Assembly: GCA_963786955.1 (NCBI GenBank)
Contig: CAWBAT010000003.1
Coordinates: 288,001 to 352,000 of the forward strand
Reading direction: 5' to 3'
From: an uncultured Acidimicrobiia bacterium
GTDB lineage: Bacteria; Acidobacteriota; Terriglobia; Versatilivoradales; Versatilivoraceae
Length of the DNA: 64,000 bases
Shown: positions 10,701-47,838 of the stretch, in pieces
How positions within the stretch are numbered: position 1 is the first letter of the stretch
Layout: each line of letters opens with the position of its first letter
Made by a program: the position numbers and the translations under genes
Notes under the pieces: generated by a model
What the model saw: only the letters and a program-made list of their open reading frames with translations
What the model was told of the DNA's origin: nothing
Database searches by the model: none

Positions 10701-11178
10701 GCTGGATAGTGCCTTGGGCGCGGTCACCGAATTGATCAATAGCATTGCCATGATCTTGCTTTACTTTGTGTTTGCGGATCGACTGTCTGCCAGTTGGTCA
10801 CGAAAGAAGCTGGTAGTTTTTTTCTTTTTCCTGATTTTGGGATTGTCTCTGGCGGGCTTGCAGGAAATTGAGAGCATCAAGTACTGGGCCTTTTCTGGTC
10901 TCCTCTCAGGATTATTGATGTGGGGAGCTTACGTTCTGGTCTTCCGATTTGGGCTGCTCAGCCTGGCTTTTTCAGTCGGGACGGTGATCGTTCTCGGAGC
11001 CATCAAGCAAGCAGTCTACCATCCATTCCCTCATGCAGTCCTAGCAGGCCTTGTGCAAATCATAACCGTTGGCGTGTTGAGCTACTATTGTGTCAAAAAA
11101 CTGGAAGGCCAGGGCAGCTCAACGAGGTGTCTGATTGAGCATCGGGTGGCGCACCCATTAGAAGGCCTTTGTCAATAG
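7787..11178 (+). CDS. Large CPBP (CAAX/Abi) family intramembrane metalloprotease; frameshift near 10240, 3' end runs into the IS
   Basis: WEECLFR, FGAGH, IISH motifs and many TM segments. ORFs 7787-10246 and 10201-11178 are joined. Confidence 0.8.
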
Positions 11179-11718
11179 AACAAACTACCCCTTGAGTGCG
11201 ACGTAGACTTTTTTGCAAAGGCTCCCTTGCCAGATTCCTTTCTCGATCTTCAGAGCTAGCGGCTCATCGAGGACCGTACGCTGTCTACCGGCGGCCTTAG
11301 CTGGGTCTACGGGCTAAATTCCTTAGCTTTCTCCAGCCATGATTCGAACTGGAGAAGGCGGAAGGATCTCGGCCGAGTTTTTGAACCACGCACCCAGGGT
11401 TTTCTTGCTTGAGGATCGGCTCGTATCGAGTCCGTCCATGCACCCATCAGGATCAAGGCTATCGAGGACCATTGGCCTCATTAGCCCCTGGCGCCGTGCG
11501 GCGCCCCAGAAAATCGTTGGTACCAGACCGTGTCCAATGGGCGTGACCGGGTCACAGAATCGGTGGTTCTCCAAGCCAACCGGCTTGGACCAGCGCCGGG
11601 CAGGCTCGCGGTCTGGGCGTGCTCGAAAACATCAGCCTATATCGGGACGGGGACTGTGTCCAATCAGACAGCTGGATTTACACCAGCGCCACCCAAGGCT
11701 CACAGCCCCCACCCAGCT
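11179..11718 (-). ncRNA. Predicted bridge/seek RNA region, copy 1
   Basis: Mirror of 14561-15100. Confidence 0.65.
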
Positions 11719-12738
11719 TTAGCTGCTGAACAAGCGGGTCGGTTCAAACCGCACCTGATCTCGCAGCACATAATAACAGGCCCGCGCCAGCTTGTGAGCC
11801 AGGGCCTTAATTGCCAGCGTCCGATTGACGGCGGCTGTTTTCCGTTCCACAAATCGTCGGGCTGACCCATACGACCGGGCCGCGTGGGTCGCTGCCTCCA
11901 CAAAGGCCCAGGCCAGATACCGGTTGCCGTTATGGCGGTTGTTCTCCCCTTTCTTCTTCTGGTTGCTCAACCGGGTGCTGGCGACACAGCGGCAGTAAGA
12001 GGCGTAATCACCGACTTGAGGGAATCGCCCGATGTCGCCGGTCTCCAGCCAGATGGTCAGGGCGAGAATTGGTCCCACCCCATAGACACTTTGCAACAAC
12101 TCAAAGGAGGCTTCCGGCTTGGCCTGGCTCTTGAGCTGTTTCTCAATGACCGCAATCTGTTTGTCCAGAGCCTGGATCACCAGCAGCGAACTCTCCACCG
12201 CCAGCCTCCGTTCCCGGTCGGGAAACAACTCCCGAACCTCGGCGACACTCAGCTGCCGAATCGGGGTGTCGGGACTGCGCCGTCCCTGGTGGCGACTCAA
12301 CAGATTGTTGACGTGCAATAACTGACTGGTGCATTGCCTCACCAGAAAACTGCGTTGTCGCAACAGATCTCTCAGTGGCCGCTGCCCAGCCGGGTAAATG
12401 TAGCCGGTTGGCAAAAGCTTCAGCCGCAGCATCTCCCCCAGCCAGCGCGCATCTGACTTGTCGTCACTGTACTTGAGCCCCTGGTACTGCTGCATCGCAT
12501 TCGGGTTGGCCAGCTTCACCGAGTAGCCCGCTTCCTTCAGTCCATCCACCAACCAGTACCAGTTGTAGGTCGACTCCACGGCCAGCTCCACAATCTGCTC
12601 TCGATACGGCTCTAGTTGCTCTAGCACCACCATCATCTCATTGGGCAACCGACACCGATGCACCACGATTCCTCCTTCGTCCAGCAGCACCAGATAACTG
12701 TTGTTGGCATGCAGATCGATTCCGCCATATAGTTTCAT
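11719..12738 (-). CDS. IS110 family DEDD recombinase/transposase
   Basis: GIDLH, VEST, KYSDDKSDA, GVGP motifs. Protein identical to 13541-14560. Confidence 0.95.
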   Translation of the reverse strand: MKLYGGIDLHANNSYLVLLDEGGIVVHRCRLPNEMMVVLEQLEPYREQIVELAVESTYNWYWLVDGLKEAGYSVKLANPNAMQQYQGLKYSDDKSDARWLGEMLRLKLLPTGYIYPAGQRPLRDLLRQRSFLVRQCTSQLLHVNNLLSRHQGRRSPDTPIRQLSVAEVRELFPDRERRLAVESSLLVIQALDKQIAVIEKQLKSQAKPEASFELLQSVYGVGPILALTIWLETGDIGRFPQVGDYASYCRCVASTRLSNQKKKGENNRHNGNRYLAWAFVEAATHAARSYGSARRFVERKTAAVNRTLAIKALAHKLARACYYVLRDQVRFEPTRLFSS

Positions 12739-12832
12739 CAGAGGTCTCCTTTCGGGATTAAGTTCGGTACTTAACCCTGAGTCTATCCCATTCGGATAGA
12801 CTCAGGAGGCCTTCTAGATGATTATCAGACAT

Positions 12833-13446
12833 GCGCAGTGTGCATGTCTGCGAGGAGAAAGAATGGTCATGGGTGCGCCACCCGGCGATTTCGGGAGTCA
12901 TCTACTATTGTTTTCTGCTATTGCCTGCTCCGAGGTTCTGGGCCCACTGGCAATTCTGGGGGGGCTTGTTATCTTTGTGCCTGTTGGAATATGTAAACTG
13001 CGTGGACGCAGACGTAGCAGGTAGCGCCGAGTTGATTTTCAACTCTGCGGCTATTTGACACCGGAGAGGAGAAAAGCCGCGGACCCGAAAGTCGGGTCCG
13101 CGCTACACTCGGGCAAAGCCGCGTCGCGGCGGCCTGTCTCTAGAATAGAGTGTTTGGCAAGGATCGCAGCTCCGTCAGGAGCGACCTGTTTGCAGCCATG
13201 CTCTGCGGGAAAATGGGGGGGCCGAGACCTGGAAAGCTGGTAGCCAAGATTGACGCGCTTTTTGCGGCTATCGGGGGCTTGTACTCAGGTTATTCGCTGT
13301 CCACGATTGACCGGCATAACGTGCCGGTCAATCGTGGCTACCCATATTCTATGCCTCTACTAACTGTAAACCCGAGGACTCCTGCATCAGCTGAAGAGCC
13401 ACTTTGTTGTTGAAACATTTATCTCACGCAGACATGCGCAAACCAC
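12833..13446. repeat. 614-bp REP-rich spacer between the IS copies
   Basis: Empty catgggtgcgccacccg arm (12868-12884), a GTAG REP pair (~13020-13106) and agctccgtcaggagcgacct (also at ~51630). Confidence 0.6.
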
Positions 13447-13540
13447 ATGTCTGATAATCATCTAGAAGGCCTCCTGAGTCTATCCGAATGGGATAGACTC
13501 AGGGTTAAGTACCGAACTTAATCCCGAAAGGAGACCTCTG

Positions 13541-14560
13541 ATGAAACTATATGGCGGAATCGATCTGCATGCCAACAACAGTTATCTGGTGCTGCTGGAC
13601 GAAGGAGGAATCGTGGTGCATCGGTGTCGGTTGCCCAATGAGATGATGGTGGTGCTAGAGCAACTAGAGCCGTATCGAGAGCAGATTGTGGAGCTGGCCG
13701 TGGAGTCGACCTACAACTGGTACTGGTTGGTGGATGGACTGAAGGAAGCGGGCTACTCGGTGAAGCTGGCCAACCCGAATGCGATGCAGCAGTACCAGGG
13801 GCTCAAGTACAGTGACGACAAGTCAGATGCGCGCTGGCTGGGGGAGATGCTGCGGCTGAAGCTTTTGCCAACCGGCTACATTTACCCGGCTGGGCAGCGG
13901 CCACTGAGAGATCTGTTGCGACAACGCAGTTTTCTGGTGAGGCAATGCACCAGTCAGTTATTGCACGTCAACAATCTGTTGAGTCGCCACCAGGGACGGC
14001 GCAGTCCCGACACCCCGATTCGGCAGCTGAGTGTCGCCGAGGTTCGGGAGTTGTTTCCCGACCGGGAACGGAGGCTGGCGGTGGAGAGTTCGCTGCTGGT
14101 GATCCAGGCTCTGGACAAACAGATTGCGGTCATTGAGAAACAGCTCAAGAGCCAGGCCAAGCCGGAAGCCTCCTTTGAGTTGTTGCAAAGTGTCTATGGG
14201 GTGGGACCAATTCTCGCCCTGACCATCTGGCTGGAGACCGGCGACATCGGGCGATTCCCTCAAGTCGGTGATTACGCCTCTTACTGCCGCTGTGTCGCCA
14301 GCACCCGGTTGAGCAACCAGAAGAAGAAAGGGGAGAACAACCGCCATAACGGCAACCGGTATCTGGCCTGGGCCTTTGTGGAGGCAGCGACCCACGCGGC
14401 CCGGTCGTATGGGTCAGCCCGACGATTTGTGGAACGGAAAACAGCCGCCGTCAATCGGACGCTGGCAATTAAGGCCCTGGCTCACAAGCTGGCGCGGGCC
14501 TGTTATTATGTGCTGCGAGATCAGGTGCGGTTTGAACCGACCCGCTTGTTCAGCAGCTAA
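13541..14560 (+). CDS. IS110 family DEDD recombinase/transposase
   Basis: Same protein as copy 1; AAGGAG RBS upstream. Confidence 0.95.
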   Translation: MKLYGGIDLHANNSYLVLLDEGGIVVHRCRLPNEMMVVLEQLEPYREQIVELAVESTYNWYWLVDGLKEAGYSVKLANPNAMQQYQGLKYSDDKSDARWLGEMLRLKLLPTGYIYPAGQRPLRDLLRQRSFLVRQCTSQLLHVNNLLSRHQGRRSPDTPIRQLSVAEVRELFPDRERRLAVESSLLVIQALDKQIAVIEKQLKSQAKPEASFELLQSVYGVGPILALTIWLETGDIGRFPQVGDYASYCRCVASTRLSNQKKKGENNRHNGNRYLAWAFVEAATHAARSYGSARRFVERKTAAVNRTLAIKALAHKLARACYYVLRDQVRFEPTRLFSS

Positions 14561-15100
14561 AGCTGGGTGGGGGCTGTGAGCCTTGGGTGGCGCTGGTGTA
14601 AATCCAGCTGTCTGATTGGACACAGTCCCCGTCCCGATATAGGCTGATGTTTTCGAGCACGCCCAGACCGCGAGCCTGCCCGGCGCTGGTCCAAGCCGGT
14701 TGGCTTGGAGAACCACCGATTCTGTGACCCGGTCACGCCCATTGGACACGGTCTGGTACCAACGATTTTCTGGGGCGCCGCACGGCGCCAGGGGCTAATG
14801 AGGCCAATGGTCCTCGATAGCCTTGATCCTGATGGGTGCATGGACGGACTCGATACGAGCCGATCCTCAAGCAAGAAAACCCTGGGTGCGTGGTTCAAAA
14901 ACTCGGCCGGGATCCTTCCGCCTTCTCCAGTTCGAATCATGGCTGGAGAAAGCTAAGGAATTTAGCCCGTAGACCCAGCTAAGGCCGCCGGTAGACAGCG
15001 TACGGTCCTCGATGAGCCGCTAGCTCTGAAGATCGAGAAAGGAATCTGGCAAGGGAGCCTTTGCAAAAAAGTCTACGTCGCACTCAAGGGGTAGTTTGTT
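14561..15100 (+). ncRNA. Predicted bridge/seek RNA region (3' non-coding region)
   Basis: Structured region containing a donor match tgtctgat (14609-14616) and a target match atgggtgc (14832-14839), each closely followed by TGGAC. Confidence 0.65.
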
Positions 15101-15175
15101 CTATTGACAAAGGCCTTCTAATGGGTGCGCCACCCGAGATTTACGGGAACACCAATCTTCAAATATGATAAGGCT

Positions 15176-16073: not shown

Positions 16074-17429
16074 ATGAGTTCGGGAAACAGCTCTACTGTC
16101 AGTAGCCAGCGGAATGCTTTCGCACGTTTCTTTAAGTCTGAAGCAACGAGCAGCATCCTTCTTCTGTTGTGTACGATTGTCGCCCTCCTGTGGGCGAACT
16201 CTTCAAGATCCGAGCTGTATAGTCATATTCTCCAAACTAAGGTTGGGCTTTCATGGGGGGATTCGAAGTTTGCGTTGTCTCTGCACCACTGGATTAATGA
16301 CGGCTTGATGACCTTGTTCTTCTTCATCGTCGGTTTGGAAATCAAGCGAGAAATCGTGGTCGGCCAACTCTCATCTTTCAAGAAGGCCGTTCTCCCTGTC
16401 GCTGCGGCCGTAGGTGGCATGGTTGTGCCCGCGCTGATCTACCTGAGTCTCAACGCTGGAAGCGAAGGGGCTCGCGGATGGGGCATTGCCATGGCGACGG
16501 ATATTGCCTTTGCCATTGGAATTTTGTCCCTGCTGGGTTCGCGCGTCCCGGTGGGCCTCAAACTGTTTCTCACGGCTCTAGCCATTACGGACGACCTGGG
16601 AGCCGTTCTCGTGATCGCCGTGTTCTATACGGACCATATACGAGTAGGGGCACTGTTCGCCGCGGCTGTCTTTCTCGCTCTGCTGGTTGTCGCGCAACGG
16701 TTGGGAATCCGGCTTGCCTCTGTTTATGCGGTCCTGGCTATTGGTGTCTGGGTGGCGATTGTGATGTCCGGTGTGCATGCCACCGTGGCAGGGATTCTCG
16801 TCGCCATGGTTGTGCCGGTACGCCCACGCATTGAGCCCAAGAAATTCCTCAGCATTGCCCGTGACCGCATTGGAACCCTTGAAAACAATCTCGCATCTGA
16901 GAGCACGACTCTTGTTCGAGAGCAGATCGATGCCATCGAAACATTGCATATTGCCACGAAGGACGTGATCCCAGCTGGACTCTCATTTGAGCACTATCTC
17001 CATCCGGTGACGGCCTACGTCATCATCCCGTTATTCGCGCTCTTCAACGCCGGTGTAGCGGTCAACGCCGGTGTCGTCAGTGCGTTCGTCAATCCCGTCA
17101 GTCTCGGCGTTCTCATGGGTCTCTTCGTGGGTAAGCAGGTCGGGGTCACCCTTGCAAGTTGGATTGCGATTCGCCTTCGTGCAGCCGAAATGCCTCCGGG
17201 AGTCACTTGGGGACAGATCTATGGAGCGGCCATCTTGGCGGGAATTGGTTTTACGATGTCGCTTTTTGTCGCGGATCTCGCTTTTCCGAGCGGGACTCTG
17301 ATTGGCCCGGCCAAGCTGGGCATCCTGGCCGCTTCAACACTGGCTGGCGTTGCGGGATATGGAGTACTCCGCATCGCCTTACGGAAGGTGGCTAAGCCGG
17401 CCAATATGCCATCAAGCTCCCTTCACTAA
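16074..17429 (+). CDS. nhaA: Na+/H+ antiporter NhaA
   Basis: WINDGLM, GLEIKRE, ATDIAF, TDDLG, GIGFTMSLF. Confidence 0.95.
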   Translation: MSSGNSSTVSSQRNAFARFFKSEATSSILLLLCTIVALLWANSSRSELYSHILQTKVGLSWGDSKFALSLHHWINDGLMTLFFFIVGLEIKREIVVGQLSSFKKAVLPVAAAVGGMVVPALIYLSLNAGSEGARGWGIAMATDIAFAIGILSLLGSRVPVGLKLFLTALAITDDLGAVLVIAVFYTDHIRVGALFAAAVFLALLVVAQRLGIRLASVYAVLAIGVWVAIVMSGVHATVAGILVAMVVPVRPRIEPKKFLSIARDRIGTLENNLASESTTLVREQIDAIETLHIATKDVIPAGLSFEHYLHPVTAYVIIPLFALFNAGVAVNAGVVSAFVNPVSLGVLMGLFVGKQVGVTLASWIAIRLRAAEMPPGVTWGQIYGAAILAGIGFTMSLFVADLAFPSGTLIGPAKLGILAASTLAGVAGYGVLRIALRKVAKPANMPSSSLH

Positions 17430-17433
17430 ACTC

Positions 17434-18108
17434 TCACTTGACCAAACCACGTTTTCCCATCTCCTTGTAAATCGCCTTGGCGATCCCCGCCACAGCGTCT
17501 TCGATAGATTTTGGATTCGTGGTTTGAGTCACGCTGGTCCAGAGCAGTTTGTCATCCTTGATCGAGTAAATGGTTGTTTCCACTTGGTAAATCTTATCGG
17601 TGTAGACGTAACCCGGGTCATATAGGGACGACCAGGCCCAGCCATAATATCCCCAAAAAGTTCCATAATAGGGTGGATAGGCTCCGGGTACATAGGTGAC
17701 CTTGTCCTGAGCTCGAAGCAGGCGCATGACGACCGCTCCATCAAATCCTAACTGCTGGATTTTCTGTTTGGCCTGATCTTTATTGAGGAAATCTGATTCA
17801 TTAAGGACATTATAGGCTTGGAACGGATTGCCCTTTTTGATCTCAAAGGCCATGTAGTTTTCTACTATTTGACGATTCCCCGGGTCCTTGGCAATGCAAA
17901 TAGTCAAAATATGGTTAAAAGAATAATTTCCGATACCGGGAGCTGCCCAACTCTGAATCAGCTTGGTGCCAGCCCAAACTTCGGGGAGAACAGGGGTGGT
18001 CCCAAAAAGCATTAGAAACAAAACACACCGAACAAAGAACAGACGCACAGGAAACCTCCTATTTAAATAATGAATATTTCTTATCTCTTCTTCTATTTTG
18101 GATGACAT
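17434..18108 (-). CDS. Exported hypothetical protein (DUF4136-like)
   Basis: Hydrophobic N-terminal segment, Tyr/Gly-rich loop, VETTIY...KLLW. The true start may be downstream. Confidence 0.65.
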   Translation of the reverse strand: MSSKIEEEIRNIHYLNRRFPVRLFFVRCVLFLMLFGTTPVLPEVWAGTKLIQSWAAPGIGNYSFNHILTICIAKDPGNRQIVENYMAFEIKKGNPFQAYNVLNESDFLNKDQAKQKIQQLGFDGAVVMRLLRAQDKVTYVPGAYPPYYGTFWGYYGWAWSSLYDPGYVYTDKIYQVETTIYSIKDDKLLWTSVTQTTNPKSIEDAVAGIAKAIYKEMGKRGLVK

Positions 18109-18208
18109 TCGTGTCCACTCGTGAATTGGCTAGTTATTGTCGCAGAGTTGTCAAACACTGAAATGACCAGCCAGGATTTTAAGTATCCTGTTTTATGCAA
18201 TTCATCTC

Positions 18209-18413
18209 AACCACAAAGAGCACAGAGAGAGAGAGGCGTCAAACCTTGTGCTCTGAACGGTCACCCAAGAGCTAGTCTAAGGATGTCTCTCTCCTGTAGT
18301 TTGTCAAACCATTTGCGAACATTCGCCGTGGCGGTAGAACGGTGCTGGCCACGCTTTCATATCCACCATCAGCTCCCAGAGGTCTATGCGCTCTTTGCGT
18401 TCTTTGTGGTCAA
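18209..18413. repeat. ~205-bp repeat copy A with terminal inverted 9-mer arrays
   Basis: Near-identical to 18995-19206. Confidence 0.9.
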
Positions 18414-18422
18414 ATCAACCCC

Positions 18423-18516
18423 TGGTTCCGTCAACAAATAGAGTTCACGTTTGATCTCAGCTTTCAGCTCAGCCTCAGTGGGCAGATAGAGCTTGTAGCG
18501 GCTGGTAAAGATCTTC
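18423..18516 (-). pseudogene. C-terminal remnant of a YhcG/DUF1016 PD-(D/E)XK nuclease
   Basis: Reverse frame KIFTSRYKLYLPTEAELKAEIKRE resembles the typical DUF1016 C-terminus. Confidence 0.6.
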
Positions 18517-18577
18517 TGTCGTTGCGGTTTATGACATCACAACTACAAAGAACGGAAAGGATTCCTTGCCCTGCGAT

Positions 18578-18976
18578 CTAGGCGTTCTTTGAGGCTACCT
18601 TCCCCTCCGTCCAGACAAACTTACGGATTTGAAACTTGTAAGAGCCAAAGTTGATCAGGAGCCCGTGCTCTAGACGCGTCGACTTCAAATAGCCGAGAAT
18701 CTGTGCCTCGTGTTCGGATGCCAAGGCCTTGGCTGTCTTGAGTTCGACAATCAAGGTCCCTTCCACGATCAAATCTGCCAGGTACTCTCCGATCAGGGTG
18801 CTGTCTTCATCATAAACTTTGATGGGGAATTGCTGTTTCACATCGAGACCCGTCTTGCGAAGCCGATGAGCAAGAGCATTCTCATAGACTTTCTCCAGAT
18901 GCCCATGCCCGTGGTAGATATGAATGTCATAAGCCGTCTGCCGAACAAAATCGCACAATTGGTGAATGTCTTTCAA
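18578..18976 (-). CDS. GxxExxY protein (PD-(D/E)XK nuclease-like)
   Basis: GHLEKVY, ADLIVE..IVELK, AQILGYLK, GLLINFG. Probable TTG start at 18976 after GAGGTG. Confidence 0.9.
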   Translation of the reverse strand: MKDIHQLCDFVRQTAYDIHIYHGHGHLEKVYENALAHRLRKTGLDVKQQFPIKVYDEDSTLIGEYLADLIVEGTLIVELKTAKALASEHEAQILGYLKSTRLEHGLLINFGSYKFQIRKFVWTEGKVASKNA

Positions 18977-18994
18977 CCGACACCTCTTATTAAT

Positions 18995-19206
18995 AACCGC
19001 AAAGAACACAAAGAGCACAGAGAGAGAGGCGTCAAACCTTGTGCTCTGAACGGTCACCCAAGAGCTAGTCTAAGGATGTCTCTCTCCTGTAGTTTGTCAA
19101 CCCATTTGCGAACATTCGCTGTGGCGGTAGAACGGTGCTGGCCACGCTTTCATATTCACCATCAGCTCCCAGAGGTCTATGTGCTCTTTGGGTTCTTTGC
19201 GGTCAA
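18995..19206. repeat. ~210-bp repeat copy B
   Basis: Terminal IR accgcaaagaacacaaagagcacagaga / tctatgtgctctttgggttctttgcggt. Confidence 0.9.
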
Positions 19207-19262
19207 GTTCCCTCTGGTACGAATTCTCAAGATAAATTAATCACGAACAACCTATGAAAGGA

Positions 19263-20400
19263 TCAACTCTTCGCCCGAAATCGGGCCGGTGCAAACTCAT
19301 TGACCAGAGTGTGCTCCCGAGACTGTAAGATCATACTGGCTGCCAGCACTCCCACCGAATAGCTGACGGTCACTCCATGCCCGCCCAACCCCGCAACCCA
19401 GAAGAACCCCTCAAGCTTTGGATCCCAACCAATGACGAATCGTCGATCCGGGGCGAAAGTTCTCAGGCCGCACCAGGAATTACGAATGGGCAAGTCGGCC
19501 AACTTGGGAAAGTATTGTATCGTCTTGTGTGCCAATAGTTCTAATACAGCGGGGTCCTGTGTGGGAAGACCTGGTTTCTGGAGTGACTCATCGCAAGGGC
19601 TGAGGAGTAATCCACCGGATTCAGGGCGGAAATAGATTTCATGGGAAACATCCCAGACAATGGGCCAATCGGAAGAGACCCAATCGAGAGCATCGGTGAC
19701 GAATAGATGCCGTCGAAAAGGCGACAAGGAAATAGGAGTGGCACCAGCCAGAGTGCCGACCTCTCCGGCCCAGGCACCGGCTGCATCAACCAGTATGTCG
19801 GTTTCGAATTCGTGGGCTTCAGTTTGGACGGCGGCGACACGATTTCCCCGGGTAATGGATGGCCGTCTATTTTCTCGGAAAACCGCACCTCCGCCCCCAA
19901 GGCCATGGCTGCTCCGAGATACCCATGGATGAGAGCATGGATGTCAATGACTCCATCATTGGGACACCAGACTCCACCGACTGTGGGGGAGCCTTCCAGG
20001 ACAGGCACTTTCGCGATAATCTGATCCAGCGGCAACCATTCCACTTCAATGCCCGAACGTTTAGCCAGGAGAGCATCATTTTGAAGCTGCTTCGCACCCT
20101 CTCTCGTCTGCGAGCAGGAAAGACCCGGTTTGTTGGAACGCAGGTTTCTATAGGCCACGAATCGGGCAAATGGCGCAGAAAAGCCGCTCCTCCTCGGGCC
20201 ATTGCACTGGCGGGTTCCCCAGAGATGACTTGTCGAACCATGGCCGCATTCCGTCCGGAAGCATGCATTCCAGGAACGGCTTCCTGCTCCAAAACAATGA
20301 CATTGTTCATGCCCATCTGGGTCAAGTGATAGGCCGTGGCCGCACCCGCGAATCCTGCCCCACGATGACACAACGCTTTTGGGTCATCCCATGAACTCAT
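19263..20400 (-). CDS. FAD-dependent oxidoreductase (DAO/sarcosine oxidase-like), several frameshifts
   Basis: GAGFAG, ASGRNA, GLRTFAPD, GLGGHG spread over three ORFs. Confidence 0.8.
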
Positions 20401-20428
20401 ACAACCTTTACCTTTCAAGCCTCCAACT

Positions 20429-21266
20429 TCAAAGAATTCTCATGGAGGTCACCTTCGATTCAATGTTTCTTCTTGCCTTCTGACTTGCCTTGGGAACAAA
20501 TCGATAACCGACCCCGCGCACGGTCAGAAGGAATTTGGGTTTAGCAGGAATATCCTCAATATATCTGCGTAGCCTGACAATAAAGTTATCAATCGCGCGC
20601 GTATCCGTATCTTCATGCAATCCCCAGACCTCTTCAAGGATAGACTTGCGCGAGACCGTTTTCCCCAGGTGATGAACCAGGTGATGAAGCAAGCCTGCCT
20701 CCATTAAGGTTAACGGGATGATCCGGTTCCCCACTCGAATCTCCGGGATAGTAAAGTCAATCGTTTTTCCATCAAATTGAAACTGCTCCTGACCGGCTTC
20801 ACGTCCATACATGGACAGATTTCGGGAGAACTTTTTCCGAAGGGAGCCCCGTGGCATTTTCCTGGGCGGTCCTATCTAGATGGCTGCGCAAAAACCAGTG
20901 CTGACGGCGCAAGAGACCTCCCAATCTGGCCAGCAGGATGGTTAATTCAAAAGGCTTCGGCAAGTAATCATCAGCCCCCGCGGCGAAGCCCTGGAGTACG
21001 TCTTCCGGCCGCCCTCGGGCAGTCATGATGAGCACAGGAATAAAAAGCCCCGTTTTCCGAAGTTCGGAAACAACGGTGAATCCATCAATCCCGGGGAGCA
21101 TCACGTCGAGAAGAATCACATCAAAACGCTCGGGATTTGTCTTGATCGACTCTAGAGCTGTCTCGCCGTCTGCAGCGATTTCAACCTGATATCCTTCGGC
21201 TTCCAGGTTGAAACGCAATCCATTGGCAAGATGTTGTTCGTCTTCAACAATTAAAACCGCACTCAT
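20429..21266 (-). CDS. OmpR-family response regulator (frameshift ~20850)
   Basis: VEDE, LLDVMLP, GADDYLPKPF, TVRGVGY. Confidence 0.9.
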
Positions 21267-47428: not shown

Positions 47429-47633
47429 TGGTGTTAAGTGTCACAAATTCGTAGTAATTGTTGTAGCCGGGGTCGTTGACCCCGGCCAGGGCCGGCCTCA
47501 TCGAGGCCGGCTACAGCTAAGAATGATTCTCGAGGTTTCACAGCACATGGTAGGGCGGTCTCGTTGAGACCGCCGCAAACGTTCGTTGTAGCCGGGGTCG
47601 TTGACCCCGGCCAGGGACGGCCTCATCGAGGCC
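47429..47633. repeat. REP cluster
   Basis: gtagccggggtcgttgaccccggc twice, plus gtagggcggtctcgttgagaccgcc. Confidence 0.7.
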
Positions 47634-47838
47634 GTGGTTGGACGGGAGAAGGCGGGCACCTTGGTAGATCGCCTTCTTGGCGTCCTTGGCGTTTCGTTCT
47701 TCCGTTCACCGGGGAAGCGAGAAAGTTAGCGCTTATAGGTCAACGGCCCCGGCCGACCCCAGTGGCGCATAACAAAAATCCCTTACTAACTATGCAGTTT
47801 CTGAACCAGCAATGGTCTTGATGTGACAAGGAGATTCA

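Follow-up and report, generated by a model that had tools for sequence, protein, structure and literature searches.

What does a gene for a small nuclease-like protein have to do with the repeats on either side of it, each bounded by inverted arrays of a 9-mer? The locus that raises this question lies at positions 18,209 to 19,206 of a 64,000-nt stretch of DNA (the window) from an uncultured bacterium (GenBank assembly GCA_963786955.1, contig CAWBAT010000003.1, positions 288,001 to 352,000), whose genome, here called G000, has 5.65 Mb and is 93% complete. The gene encodes a GxxExxY protein, a family for which we know of no function or substrate. Such arrays were confirmed to be strongly enriched beside GxxExxY genes, in the same genome, in a sample of its phylum and among close protein relatives from many phyla. 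Comparison of related genomes further supports gene and arrays being a discrete, movable unit. As an overall explanation we propose, with confidence about evenly balanced, that these loci are widespread small selfish cassettes, whose arrays would be cis sites that the encoded nuclease reads unit by unit and that mark the cassette ends, the core of each repeat being a passenger.

The locus and its gene product

As described in the initial annotation, the GxxExxY gene lies between two direct repeats of ~205 bp bounded by inverted 9-mer arrays. The repeats, 18213-18413 (copy A) and 19006-19206 (copy B), are 95% identical over 201 nt in an ungapped comparison and 96% identical over 202 nt by BLAST. 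The inverted arms of copy B (18996-19023 and 19176-19203) are 28 nt long, 93% complementary and 152 nt apart, and those of copy A (18210-18229 and 18391-18410) are 20 nt long and 85% complementary; alignment of the copies showed the left arm of copy A to be shorter by one 9-nt unit, also as first described. Each arm consists of 9-bp units in a row, every unit comprising CA[R]AGA and a 3-base spacer. The three-unit pattern CARAGARNNCARAGARNNCARAGA, allowing ≤2 mismatches, had three matches in the window, all within repeat arms, and none in 100 shuffles; genome-wide, the three-unit 9-mer pattern had seven matches at ≤1 mismatch, three of them at this locus. The predicted fold of the 205-bp element is a branched palindrome on either strand (gene-sense strand, -86.7 kcal/mol, z -4.9; opposite strand, -87.1 kcal/mol, z -5.9). 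It includes the inner stem GAGAGAGG/CCUCUCUC noted at the outset, and the core first given as ~150 nt measures 152 nt in copy B. The parts of the locus are:

18210-18229: copy A left arm, array of 9-mers, one unit short (inverted repeat, alignment with copy B)
18230-18390: copy A core or loop, 98% identical to the copy B core (alignment)
18391-18410: copy A right arm, array of 9-mers (inverted repeat, unit-pattern matches)
18414-18515, minus strand: DUF1016/YhcG (PD-(D/E)XK) gene remnant, last ~34 codons (translation)
18537-18594: mini-hairpin with a 12-nt loop, same unit family (inverted and direct repeats)
18578-18976, minus strand: GxxExxY PD-(D/E)XK gene, 132 aa, TTG start (profiles, alignment, fold model)
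18983-18988, minus strand: Shine-Dalgarno-like AAGAGG, 6 nt ahead of the TTG (read from the sequence)
18996-19023: copy B gene-proximal arm, three 9-mers, CAAAGAACA CAAAGAGCA CAGAGA (inverted repeat, unit pattern)
19024-19175: copy B core, 152 nt, lineage-restricted (similarity searches, divergence)
19176-19206: copy B distal arm, array of 9-mers, with the end of the direct repeat (inverted repeat, unit pattern)

Along the direction of the gene the order is thus copy B, ribosome-binding site, gene, mini-hairpin, DUF1016/YhcG remnant and copy A, where the two copies have the form array-core-inverted array and the mini-hairpin, a third and small hairpin of the same unit family just past the GxxExxY stop codon (arms 18537-18559 and 18572-18594), has the form array-loop-inverted array. 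The whole block lies between two co-oriented host genes, for a FAD-dependent oxidoreductase and a DUF4136-like protein, the DUF4136 match of the latter falling below the Pfam cut-off. The real start of the GxxExxY gene is the TTG at 18976-18974, preceded by AAGAGG, and 19 nt therefore separate copy B from the start codon, close to the ~18 bp reported earlier. At its other end the open reading frame (ORF) extends into the downstream array, which at 18578-18594 supplies the TAG stop and the six codons before it (VASKNA). The DUF1016/YhcG remnant matches the C-terminus of a 380-aa ORF at another locus (L037; DUF1016_N plus YhcG_C). A promoter and terminator scan of 18100-19300 gave one promoter-like and two terminator-like sites, not above the level in shuffles.

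The gene product matched the GxxExxY profile TIGR04256 at E 8e-35 (119.7 bits against a cut-off of 35) and PF13366 (PDDEXK_3) at E 7e-32 (110.8 bits against a cut-off of 22). PDDEXK_3 was the sole Pfam family above its cut-off, a match to NitrOD5 falling below. In an alignment of 44 sequences, G26, E29, Y32, D69, E79, Q93, G106 and N110 were invariant and K81 was at least 90% conserved (residue numbers follow a 133-aa reference, 18578-18979 in the window). The protein studied carries G26/E29/Y32, D69, E79 and K81, so that both the GxxExxY motif and the D...ExK of PD-(D/E)XK enzymes are intact. An AF2 model (pLDDT 92, pTM 0.84) confidently predicts a minimal PD-(D/E)XK fold of the restriction-endonuclease-like alpha/beta type. 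The nearest solved folds found with Foldseek were Cas4 SSO0001 (E 5e-4), RecB-type nuclease domains, lambda exonuclease and the Holliday-junction resolvase Hjc; a sequence search of the PDB with the GxxExxY protein gave no match, and prediction of a homodimer gave a score of 0.00. A dN/dS of 0.27 against the sister-species genome G002 (dS 0.13) points to a gene under purifying selection.

GxxExxY is a very large orphan family. Counted as representatives of 50%-identity clusters, the family numbered 9,895 members at E ≤0.001, 2,007 at 1e-10 and 70 at 1e-30, and matches occurred in 109 of 301 sampled genomes of the phylum (the tally includes unpublished genomes G089; the loci that were read came from other genomes). 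Among the proteins, P0028, P0064, P0087 and P0126 (250-269 aa, each with two matched stretches) are tandem two-domain GxxExxY proteins, and many other matches of the family search are truncated fragments. A 432-aa frame running through a GxxExxY match (L144) was considered as a fusion and rejected as an overlap artefact of an alternative frame of the neighbouring gene. PDDEXK_3 (PF13366) has a row in a table of PMC3424549.

Periodic arrays beside GxxExxY genes

Enrichment of arrays beside GxxExxY genes was examined with a gene-centred score, the best inverted match between the 160 nt upstream and the 220 nt downstream, for which 498 ORFs of the genome served as controls. Six of the 13 full-length GxxExxY genes of G000 (seven short or fragmentary matches were dropped beforehand) scored above the control 99th percentile, as did six of eight four-helix-bundle genes (TIGR02436), which encode proteins of the S23p type known from intervening sequences (IVS) of 23S rRNA. 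The association was also seen when approached from the repeats: of 31 inverted-repeat loci with periodic arms, eight lay within 500 bp of a GxxExxY gene and seven near a four-helix-bundle match (15/31 in all). Among inverted repeats with non-periodic arms the number near such genes was 4/203, and sequence within that distance of them makes up no more than 0.67% of the genome. Beyond G000, 30 GxxExxY loci were scored in as many other genomes of the phylum. A value of at least 13 was reached by 27 of them but by only 3 of the 498 controls; periods at these loci were estimated at 8-11, with 9 the commonest. Unit and period differ from paralogue to paralogue in G000 (examples are CACGGAGA, CACAAAGG/CACGAAGA, CGCCAAGAA, AACGGAGAT, CGCNAATGAA and CACGGGGGA), and the unit most similar to that of the studied locus belongs to the closest paralogue (64% aa identity).

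The same held for close relatives of the studied protein across phyla. One genome per species was taken, giving 80 loci whose proteins are 67-92% identical; a single protein served as query, so these loci represent one protein clade. By record they come mostly from Verrucomicrobia, with Acidobacteria, Chloroflexi (including Oscillochloris trichoides DG6), Nitrospiraceae, Pirellulales, Hydrogenedentota and others. Six loci were dropped for short flanks. At 59 of the remaining 74, a strict detector (three units, self-match ≥72%) placed an array no more than 200 nt from the gene; of 3000 random 200-nt segments, 63 contained one. All arrays detected but one had period 9. The enrichment for which the initial annotation had proposed a test is therefore present in both samples.

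Not only the presence but also the sequence of the arrays is kept. Across 71 relatives the median identity was 75% for the protein, 69% for the gene and 42% at third positions, and it was 82% for the best 28-nt arm. The best arm was at least 80% identical in 44 of the 71, where the 99th percentile of background is 61%; conservation far above that of silent sites was thus confirmed. The arrangement of the arrays varies among the 74 loci: an upstream array only in 22, no detected array in 15, array-gene-inverted array in seven, an upstream hairpin in seven and mixed layouts in the rest. The hairpin-gene-hairpin of the studied locus is one recurrent layout, with loops of 16-30 nt in most relatives against 152 nt in the studied copy. 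Tandem array-gene-array-gene arrangements also occur. In most relatives the upstream array stops 1-18 nt ahead of the start codon, and in many it starts at, or directly past, the stop codon of the preceding gene. Array ends often read TTTAACC...GGTTAAA, a sequence that may belong to the repeat itself or represent a target of the TTAA type.

Whether selection acts on a motif or on a stem can be read from 40 valid arm pairs, some of which share an arm (one further pair, a run of N, was excluded). Their mismatches comprised 43 that are G-U in sense RNA, 64 that are G-U in antisense RNA and 55 others. Within the unit C-A-R-A-G-A, position 3 was mismatched between paired arms in 31 of 62 cases and each of the other five positions in 1-4 of 62. 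The figure for position 3 is that expected if it varies independently in the two arms. Both arms thus carry the same motif, and pairing at that position is not maintained. Repeated protein-binding sites would fit this pattern better than a selected RNA or DNA stem; a stem may also form. A structured RNA, one of the options first raised for the arrays, was not borne out: Rfam matched nothing in 17000-20500 even at a permissive threshold, sense G-U pairs were not in excess, and the arms did not co-vary.

These data bear directly on the main alternative, namely that the cassette acts in RNA in the manner of a 23S rRNA IVS. By this analogy the arms would pair around the cassette within a host transcript and RNase III would cut the resulting RNA stem, the insert being trimmed out or its mRNA released or stabilised; the purine-rich upstream array would be a 5' translation leader, and movement of the DNA would be the work of other factors. 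The closest precedent is the 428-nt IVS of Coxiella burnetii, for which PMC4990558 describes a 28-bp terminal inverted-repeat stem, tandem GACAGAT heptamers before the S23p start, heptamer copy numbers that vary between strains, and excision by RNase III, S23p IVS being regarded there as selfish and horizontally acquired. The identical anatomy, the strong fold of the 205-nt element and the closeness of the upstream array to the start codon in most relatives all speak for such a reading, and so do the S23p-family genes: in this genome and at 28 of 30 four-helix-bundle loci from other genomes of the phylum (score ≥13), they carry inverted arrays of 7-8 nt (period 7 at 21 loci, 8 at six) in the layout seen at GxxExxY genes. 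(Four-helix-bundle matches occurred in 77 of 151 genomes, a tally that includes unpublished G089 and G065; the loci that were read came from other genomes.) RNA libraries contribute a metatranscriptome contig that spans 18876-19133, that is, the 5' end of the gene, the proximal arm and half of the core, with 11 differences, and two contigs of another library that cover 18495-18789; this evidence is weak because it consists of contigs only, which in public runs denote presence in a library, not transcription. Against an action in RNA stand the G-U counts, the uncorrelated variable position and the lack of an Rfam family, all given above, together with the 22 of 74 loci that have no partner arm and the fact that a stem needs neither tandem units nor a clade-specific period. 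Nor are the neighbours co-oriented beyond the ordinary rate (on both sides in 32 of 69 loci, by a crude ORF method). On balance we regard an IVS-type RNA element as unlikely, and prefer to read the arrays as sites in DNA.

Presence, replacement and reduction of cassettes

Comparison with related genomes took up the call for empty alleles. In G001, of the same genus (flanking genes ~70-74% identical), 166 bp separate the two host genes and there is no cassette, against ~1.3 kb in G000. In the sister genome G002, whose flanks are ~88-92% identical, copy B is present together with the gene and the mini-hairpin; window positions 18220-18534, with copy A and the remnant, are missing. The junction in G002 falls within two similar stretches of ~29 nt that include array sequence, and the difference reflects either loss by G002 or gain by G000.

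Elsewhere cassettes have been exchanged, have appeared in new contexts or have been reduced. At C5:600240-600968 of G000 and the same site of G002, different cassettes lie between shared flanks, which run from the upstream stop codon to GGCGGGGCC...; their proteins are ~30% identical (by eye), and their arrays are of the CACGGGGGA type in one and the CGCGAATGAA type in the other. In G001 this site could not be located. Counterparts of the cassette at G000 C9:233412 (L006), 81% identical in G002 and 70% in G001, stand in another genomic setting; the alignable part begins at the outer edge of one array and stops shortly after the other. A full cassette of G002 (L133) corresponds to a gene-less hairpin in G000 (C6:874073-874270) by one internal deletion of ~290 bp that removed most of the ORF. 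At a further locus, L007, flank homology stops ~180 nt short of the cassette. Within the window, 47482-47797 (G000 C3:335482-335797) is orthologous to another full cassette of G002 (L134) and holds a CGCCAAG-type array with copies of another palindromic repeat; it looks like a decayed cassette. The suggestion of a mobile system is thereby upheld in the sense that gene and arrays behave as one discrete, movable block, as seen in the empty site, the replacement, the new context and the internal deletion.

The explanation that we favor would run as follows. Each cassette would consist of a GxxExxY PD-(D/E)XK nuclease gene travelling with motif arrays specific to its protein clade, and the whole block would have been inserted between two co-oriented host genes. 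A protein would recognise the arrays one unit at a time as sites acting in cis, the most plausible reader being the encoded nuclease in oligomeric form, and cutting, copying or recombination of the cassette would take place at the ends that the arrays mark. The 152-nt core would be passenger filler, the hairpin modules rearranged or decayed forms, and the gene-less hairpins decay products or non-autonomous derivatives. We infer the binding of units by the encoded protein, cleavage there and the mode of cassette movement from the comparisons above. A conserved, clade-specific motif beside the gene provides a concrete candidate substrate, so that the family becomes accessible to binding, cleavage and mobility assays.

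Several observations weigh against this explanation. The studied locus itself scores only 11, at the control 99th percentile, and its gene-adjacent arms point outwards (hairpin-gene-hairpin), in place of an array-gene-inverted array. Among the relatives, 15 of 74 have no array by the strict detector, though some are visible by eye, and 22 have an array on one side only, which is not what a two-ended cut-and-paste element would call for. Linkage alone would make arrays follow protein clades over short times. No clean pair of empty and filled sites with exact junctions or a target-site duplication was found among the sites examined, and copies within this genome are diverged, with no sign of recent bursts. 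Only 8 of 72,556 plasmid records had matches, all below 60% identity and called non-mobilizable; viral contigs gave one weak partial match and no convincing occurrence. Finally, long multi-family array strings without any such gene occur elsewhere in the genome, and the simple picture leaves them unexplained.

In a second alternative, the arrays would be sites of a recombinase or DNA-binding protein, from the host or otherwise acting in trans, or by-products of staggered cuts made and filled in repeatedly, and GxxExxY would be a cargo, addiction or defence gene. A layout common to two unrelated small gene families (GxxExxY and four-helix bundle) is as such a scheme would have it; so are the array strings in an exopolysaccharide (EPS) gene cluster of G000, and in G002, without either gene, and the tandem array-gene-array-gene and one-sided arrangements recall integron cassettes. 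Each protein clade, however, keeps its own unit and period across phyla, PADLOC and PHROGs gave no match, and the cassette contains no integrase or transposase, its two immediate neighbours being the DUF4136-like and FAD-dependent oxidoreductase genes (the next genes out were judged by eye). Arrays read by a trans-acting factor thus seem distinctly improbable, and we continue to regard the encoded nuclease as the candidate reader.

The 205-bp element and known systems

The role first suggested for the 205-bp element, that of a repeat being spread, did not hold for this genome: by BLAST the element has two copies in the whole genome, and its core looks neutral. A search with the core alone found it in 2 of 31 family genomes, twice in G000 and once in G002. 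The cores of copies A and B are 98% alike, and the core is 86% identical to that of G002; since this divergence is about that of silent sites in the adjacent gene (dS 0.13), we take the core to be filler free of constraint. Copy A was either duplicated from copy B recently or has been homogenised with it. The core showed no DNA or translated similarity to GxxExxY genes or the rest of the genome, and none to the 80 related loci except the sister-genome locus L050. Diverged homologues of the whole element occur in two other genera: in G008 at the same position, beside the start of a mostly deleted GxxExxY gene, and alone in G016; comparison of G000, G008 and G016 showed no conservation of small ORFs in the core. 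In public sequencing runs, a third RNA library holds the whole 205-nt element at 96% identity in another context, preceded by another arm instead of the gene, and a DNA run holds the arms joined by 21 nt that replace the core.

That the pair simply arose when recombination-prone arrays brought about a duplication in place or converted one copy to the other, and plays no part of its own, agrees with the two copies, with cores closer to each other than to the sister species, and with the breakpoint of G002, which lacks copy A, in similar array sequence, and would be compatible with the selfish-cassette explanation, but as a rival to it we think it very unlikely given the homologues in G008 and G016, the 96% identical copy elsewhere in an environmental RNA library and the short-loop hairpins at the equivalent upstream position in relatives from other phyla.

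A common miniature inverted-repeat transposable element (MITE) inserted twice was rejected, there being only two genome copies; the refutation offered at the outset, a common MITE with no enrichment near GxxExxY genes, fails because the arrays are enriched there and the element has only those two copies. Like a MITE, the element has 28-bp terminal inverted repeats, no ORF and ends shared with a gene-carrying relative, and one gene-less hairpin of G000 is an internal deletion of a full cassette. Unlike a MITE, it is present twice, has no target-site duplication recognisable at the ends examined, has a core without similarity to the gene, and would have a 'transposase' that is not a known one.

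The analogy drawn earlier with repetitive extragenic palindromic (REP) sequences and REP-associated tyrosine transposases (RAYT) holds for the layout and fails for membership. REP/REPIN sequences and RAYT (TnpA-REP, Y1 HUH) are said to form 'REPtrons', reportedly in work by Nunvar (2010), Bertels and Rainey (2011) and Ton-Hoang (2012). As there, a single-copy-type gene is flanked by cognate inverted short repeats, single or as hairpin doublets, gene-less hairpin relatives occur elsewhere, and the repeat type is specific to the gene clade. The cassette is not a member of that system because its protein is PD-(D/E)XK and not a Y1 HUH tyrosine transposase; moreover, its units are tandem, non-palindromic and 7-10 bp long where REPs are single imperfect palindromes, and its copy number is low (two elements, seven three-unit matches) where REPs are dispersed in tens to hundreds.

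The 23S IVS (PMC4990558) is likewise a ~0.45-kb element around a ~120-135-aa ORF whose function is not known, with terminal inverted repeats of ~28 bp and tandem short repeats by the ORF; here the arms are 28 nt with three 9-mers, and S23p-family genes outside rRNA, in this genome and the phylum, carry inverted arrays too. The differences are a PD-(D/E)XK GxxExxY cargo in place of the S23p four-helix bundle (TIGR02436), a unit of 9 bp in place of 7, a site between protein genes in place of helix 25 or 45 of 23S rRNA, and hairpin modules on each side of the gene in place of one stem around the ORF. The cassette thus works like a REP/RAYT pair or an IVS and is a member of neither.

Integron gene cassettes carry attC sites. 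They resemble the present cassettes in being small ORFs that lack a promoter, carry a structured site of imperfectly palindromic form, may stand in tandem and may replace one another at a shared site. There is, however, no integrase or attI nearby, the cassettes are scattered singly in the chromosome, and their site is a tandem motif array specific to the cargo clade. A search of open-access full text (subscription journals and supplements lying outside it) found no description of GxxExxY cassettes, the Coxiella IVS paper being the only related text; a passage that names GxxExxY does not deal with repeats.

If the arrays are the sites of the nuclease, they would represent a new nuclease-and-repeat partnership beside REP/RAYT and would offer an explanation for the tandem heptamers of 23S rRNA IVS. 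Extending this, we tentatively suggest that GxxExxY and S23p genes might be two cargo classes of one large, as yet undescribed superfamily of selfish, array-bracketed cassettes, each protein reading its own motif, with the 23S IVS as the rRNA-resident special case. It is similarly conceivable, if doubtful, that periods of 7-8 bp belong to the bundle class and 8-10 bp to the nuclease class, with cassettes replacing each other at shared sites. Spent arrays may then pile up as multi-family strings like those in the EPS cluster, maybe as landing pads or protein sinks.

These strings fill intergenic stretches of the EPS cluster at ~160-266 kb of G000 contig C5 (e.g. C5:248873-249752; L172-L174), among genes for Wzx, epimerases, Wzc-like and Wza-like proteins and with no GxxExxY or four-helix-bundle gene nearby. 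Arrays of 7-, 9- and 10-mers stand back to back in one orientation in a ~370-bp super-repeat, at a density of 36 per 30 kb against 130 per Mb genome-wide. Their families include the CGCAAAGAA type of the studied locus and types that flank other GxxExxY and four-helix-bundle genes. Similar strings occur on contig C20 of G002.

Cassettes also insert inside operons. At L078, L100, L101, L104, L108, L109 and L123, all from Verrucomicrobia, a cassette of the same clade separates the complex I genes nuoJ and nuoK; its only array is upstream, and there is no space for a promoter. The neighbours were checked by Pfam for L100, where they are Oxidored_q3 and Oxidored_q2. The hairpins and recombination-prone repeats of cassettes matter for genome annotation and assembly. 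At the studied locus, the adjoining DAO-family FAD-dependent oxidoreductase gene (19263-20418, minus strand) is split across three reading frames, and its G002 orthologue is an intact ORF of 377 aa. Other REP-like short palindromic repeats, unrelated to the periodic arrays, recur often in the genome (GTAGGGGCGAAGCATCCG hairpins, GCCGGGGTCGTTGACCCCGGC and TGTAGCGGCGCTCTATGAGCGCCG). Elsewhere in the window, 11142-12833 and 13446-15137 form a perfect (100%) inverted pair of a 1,692-bp element with 612 bp between the copies, each of which encodes a 339-aa IS110-family transposase (DEDD_Tnp_IS110 plus Transposase_20).

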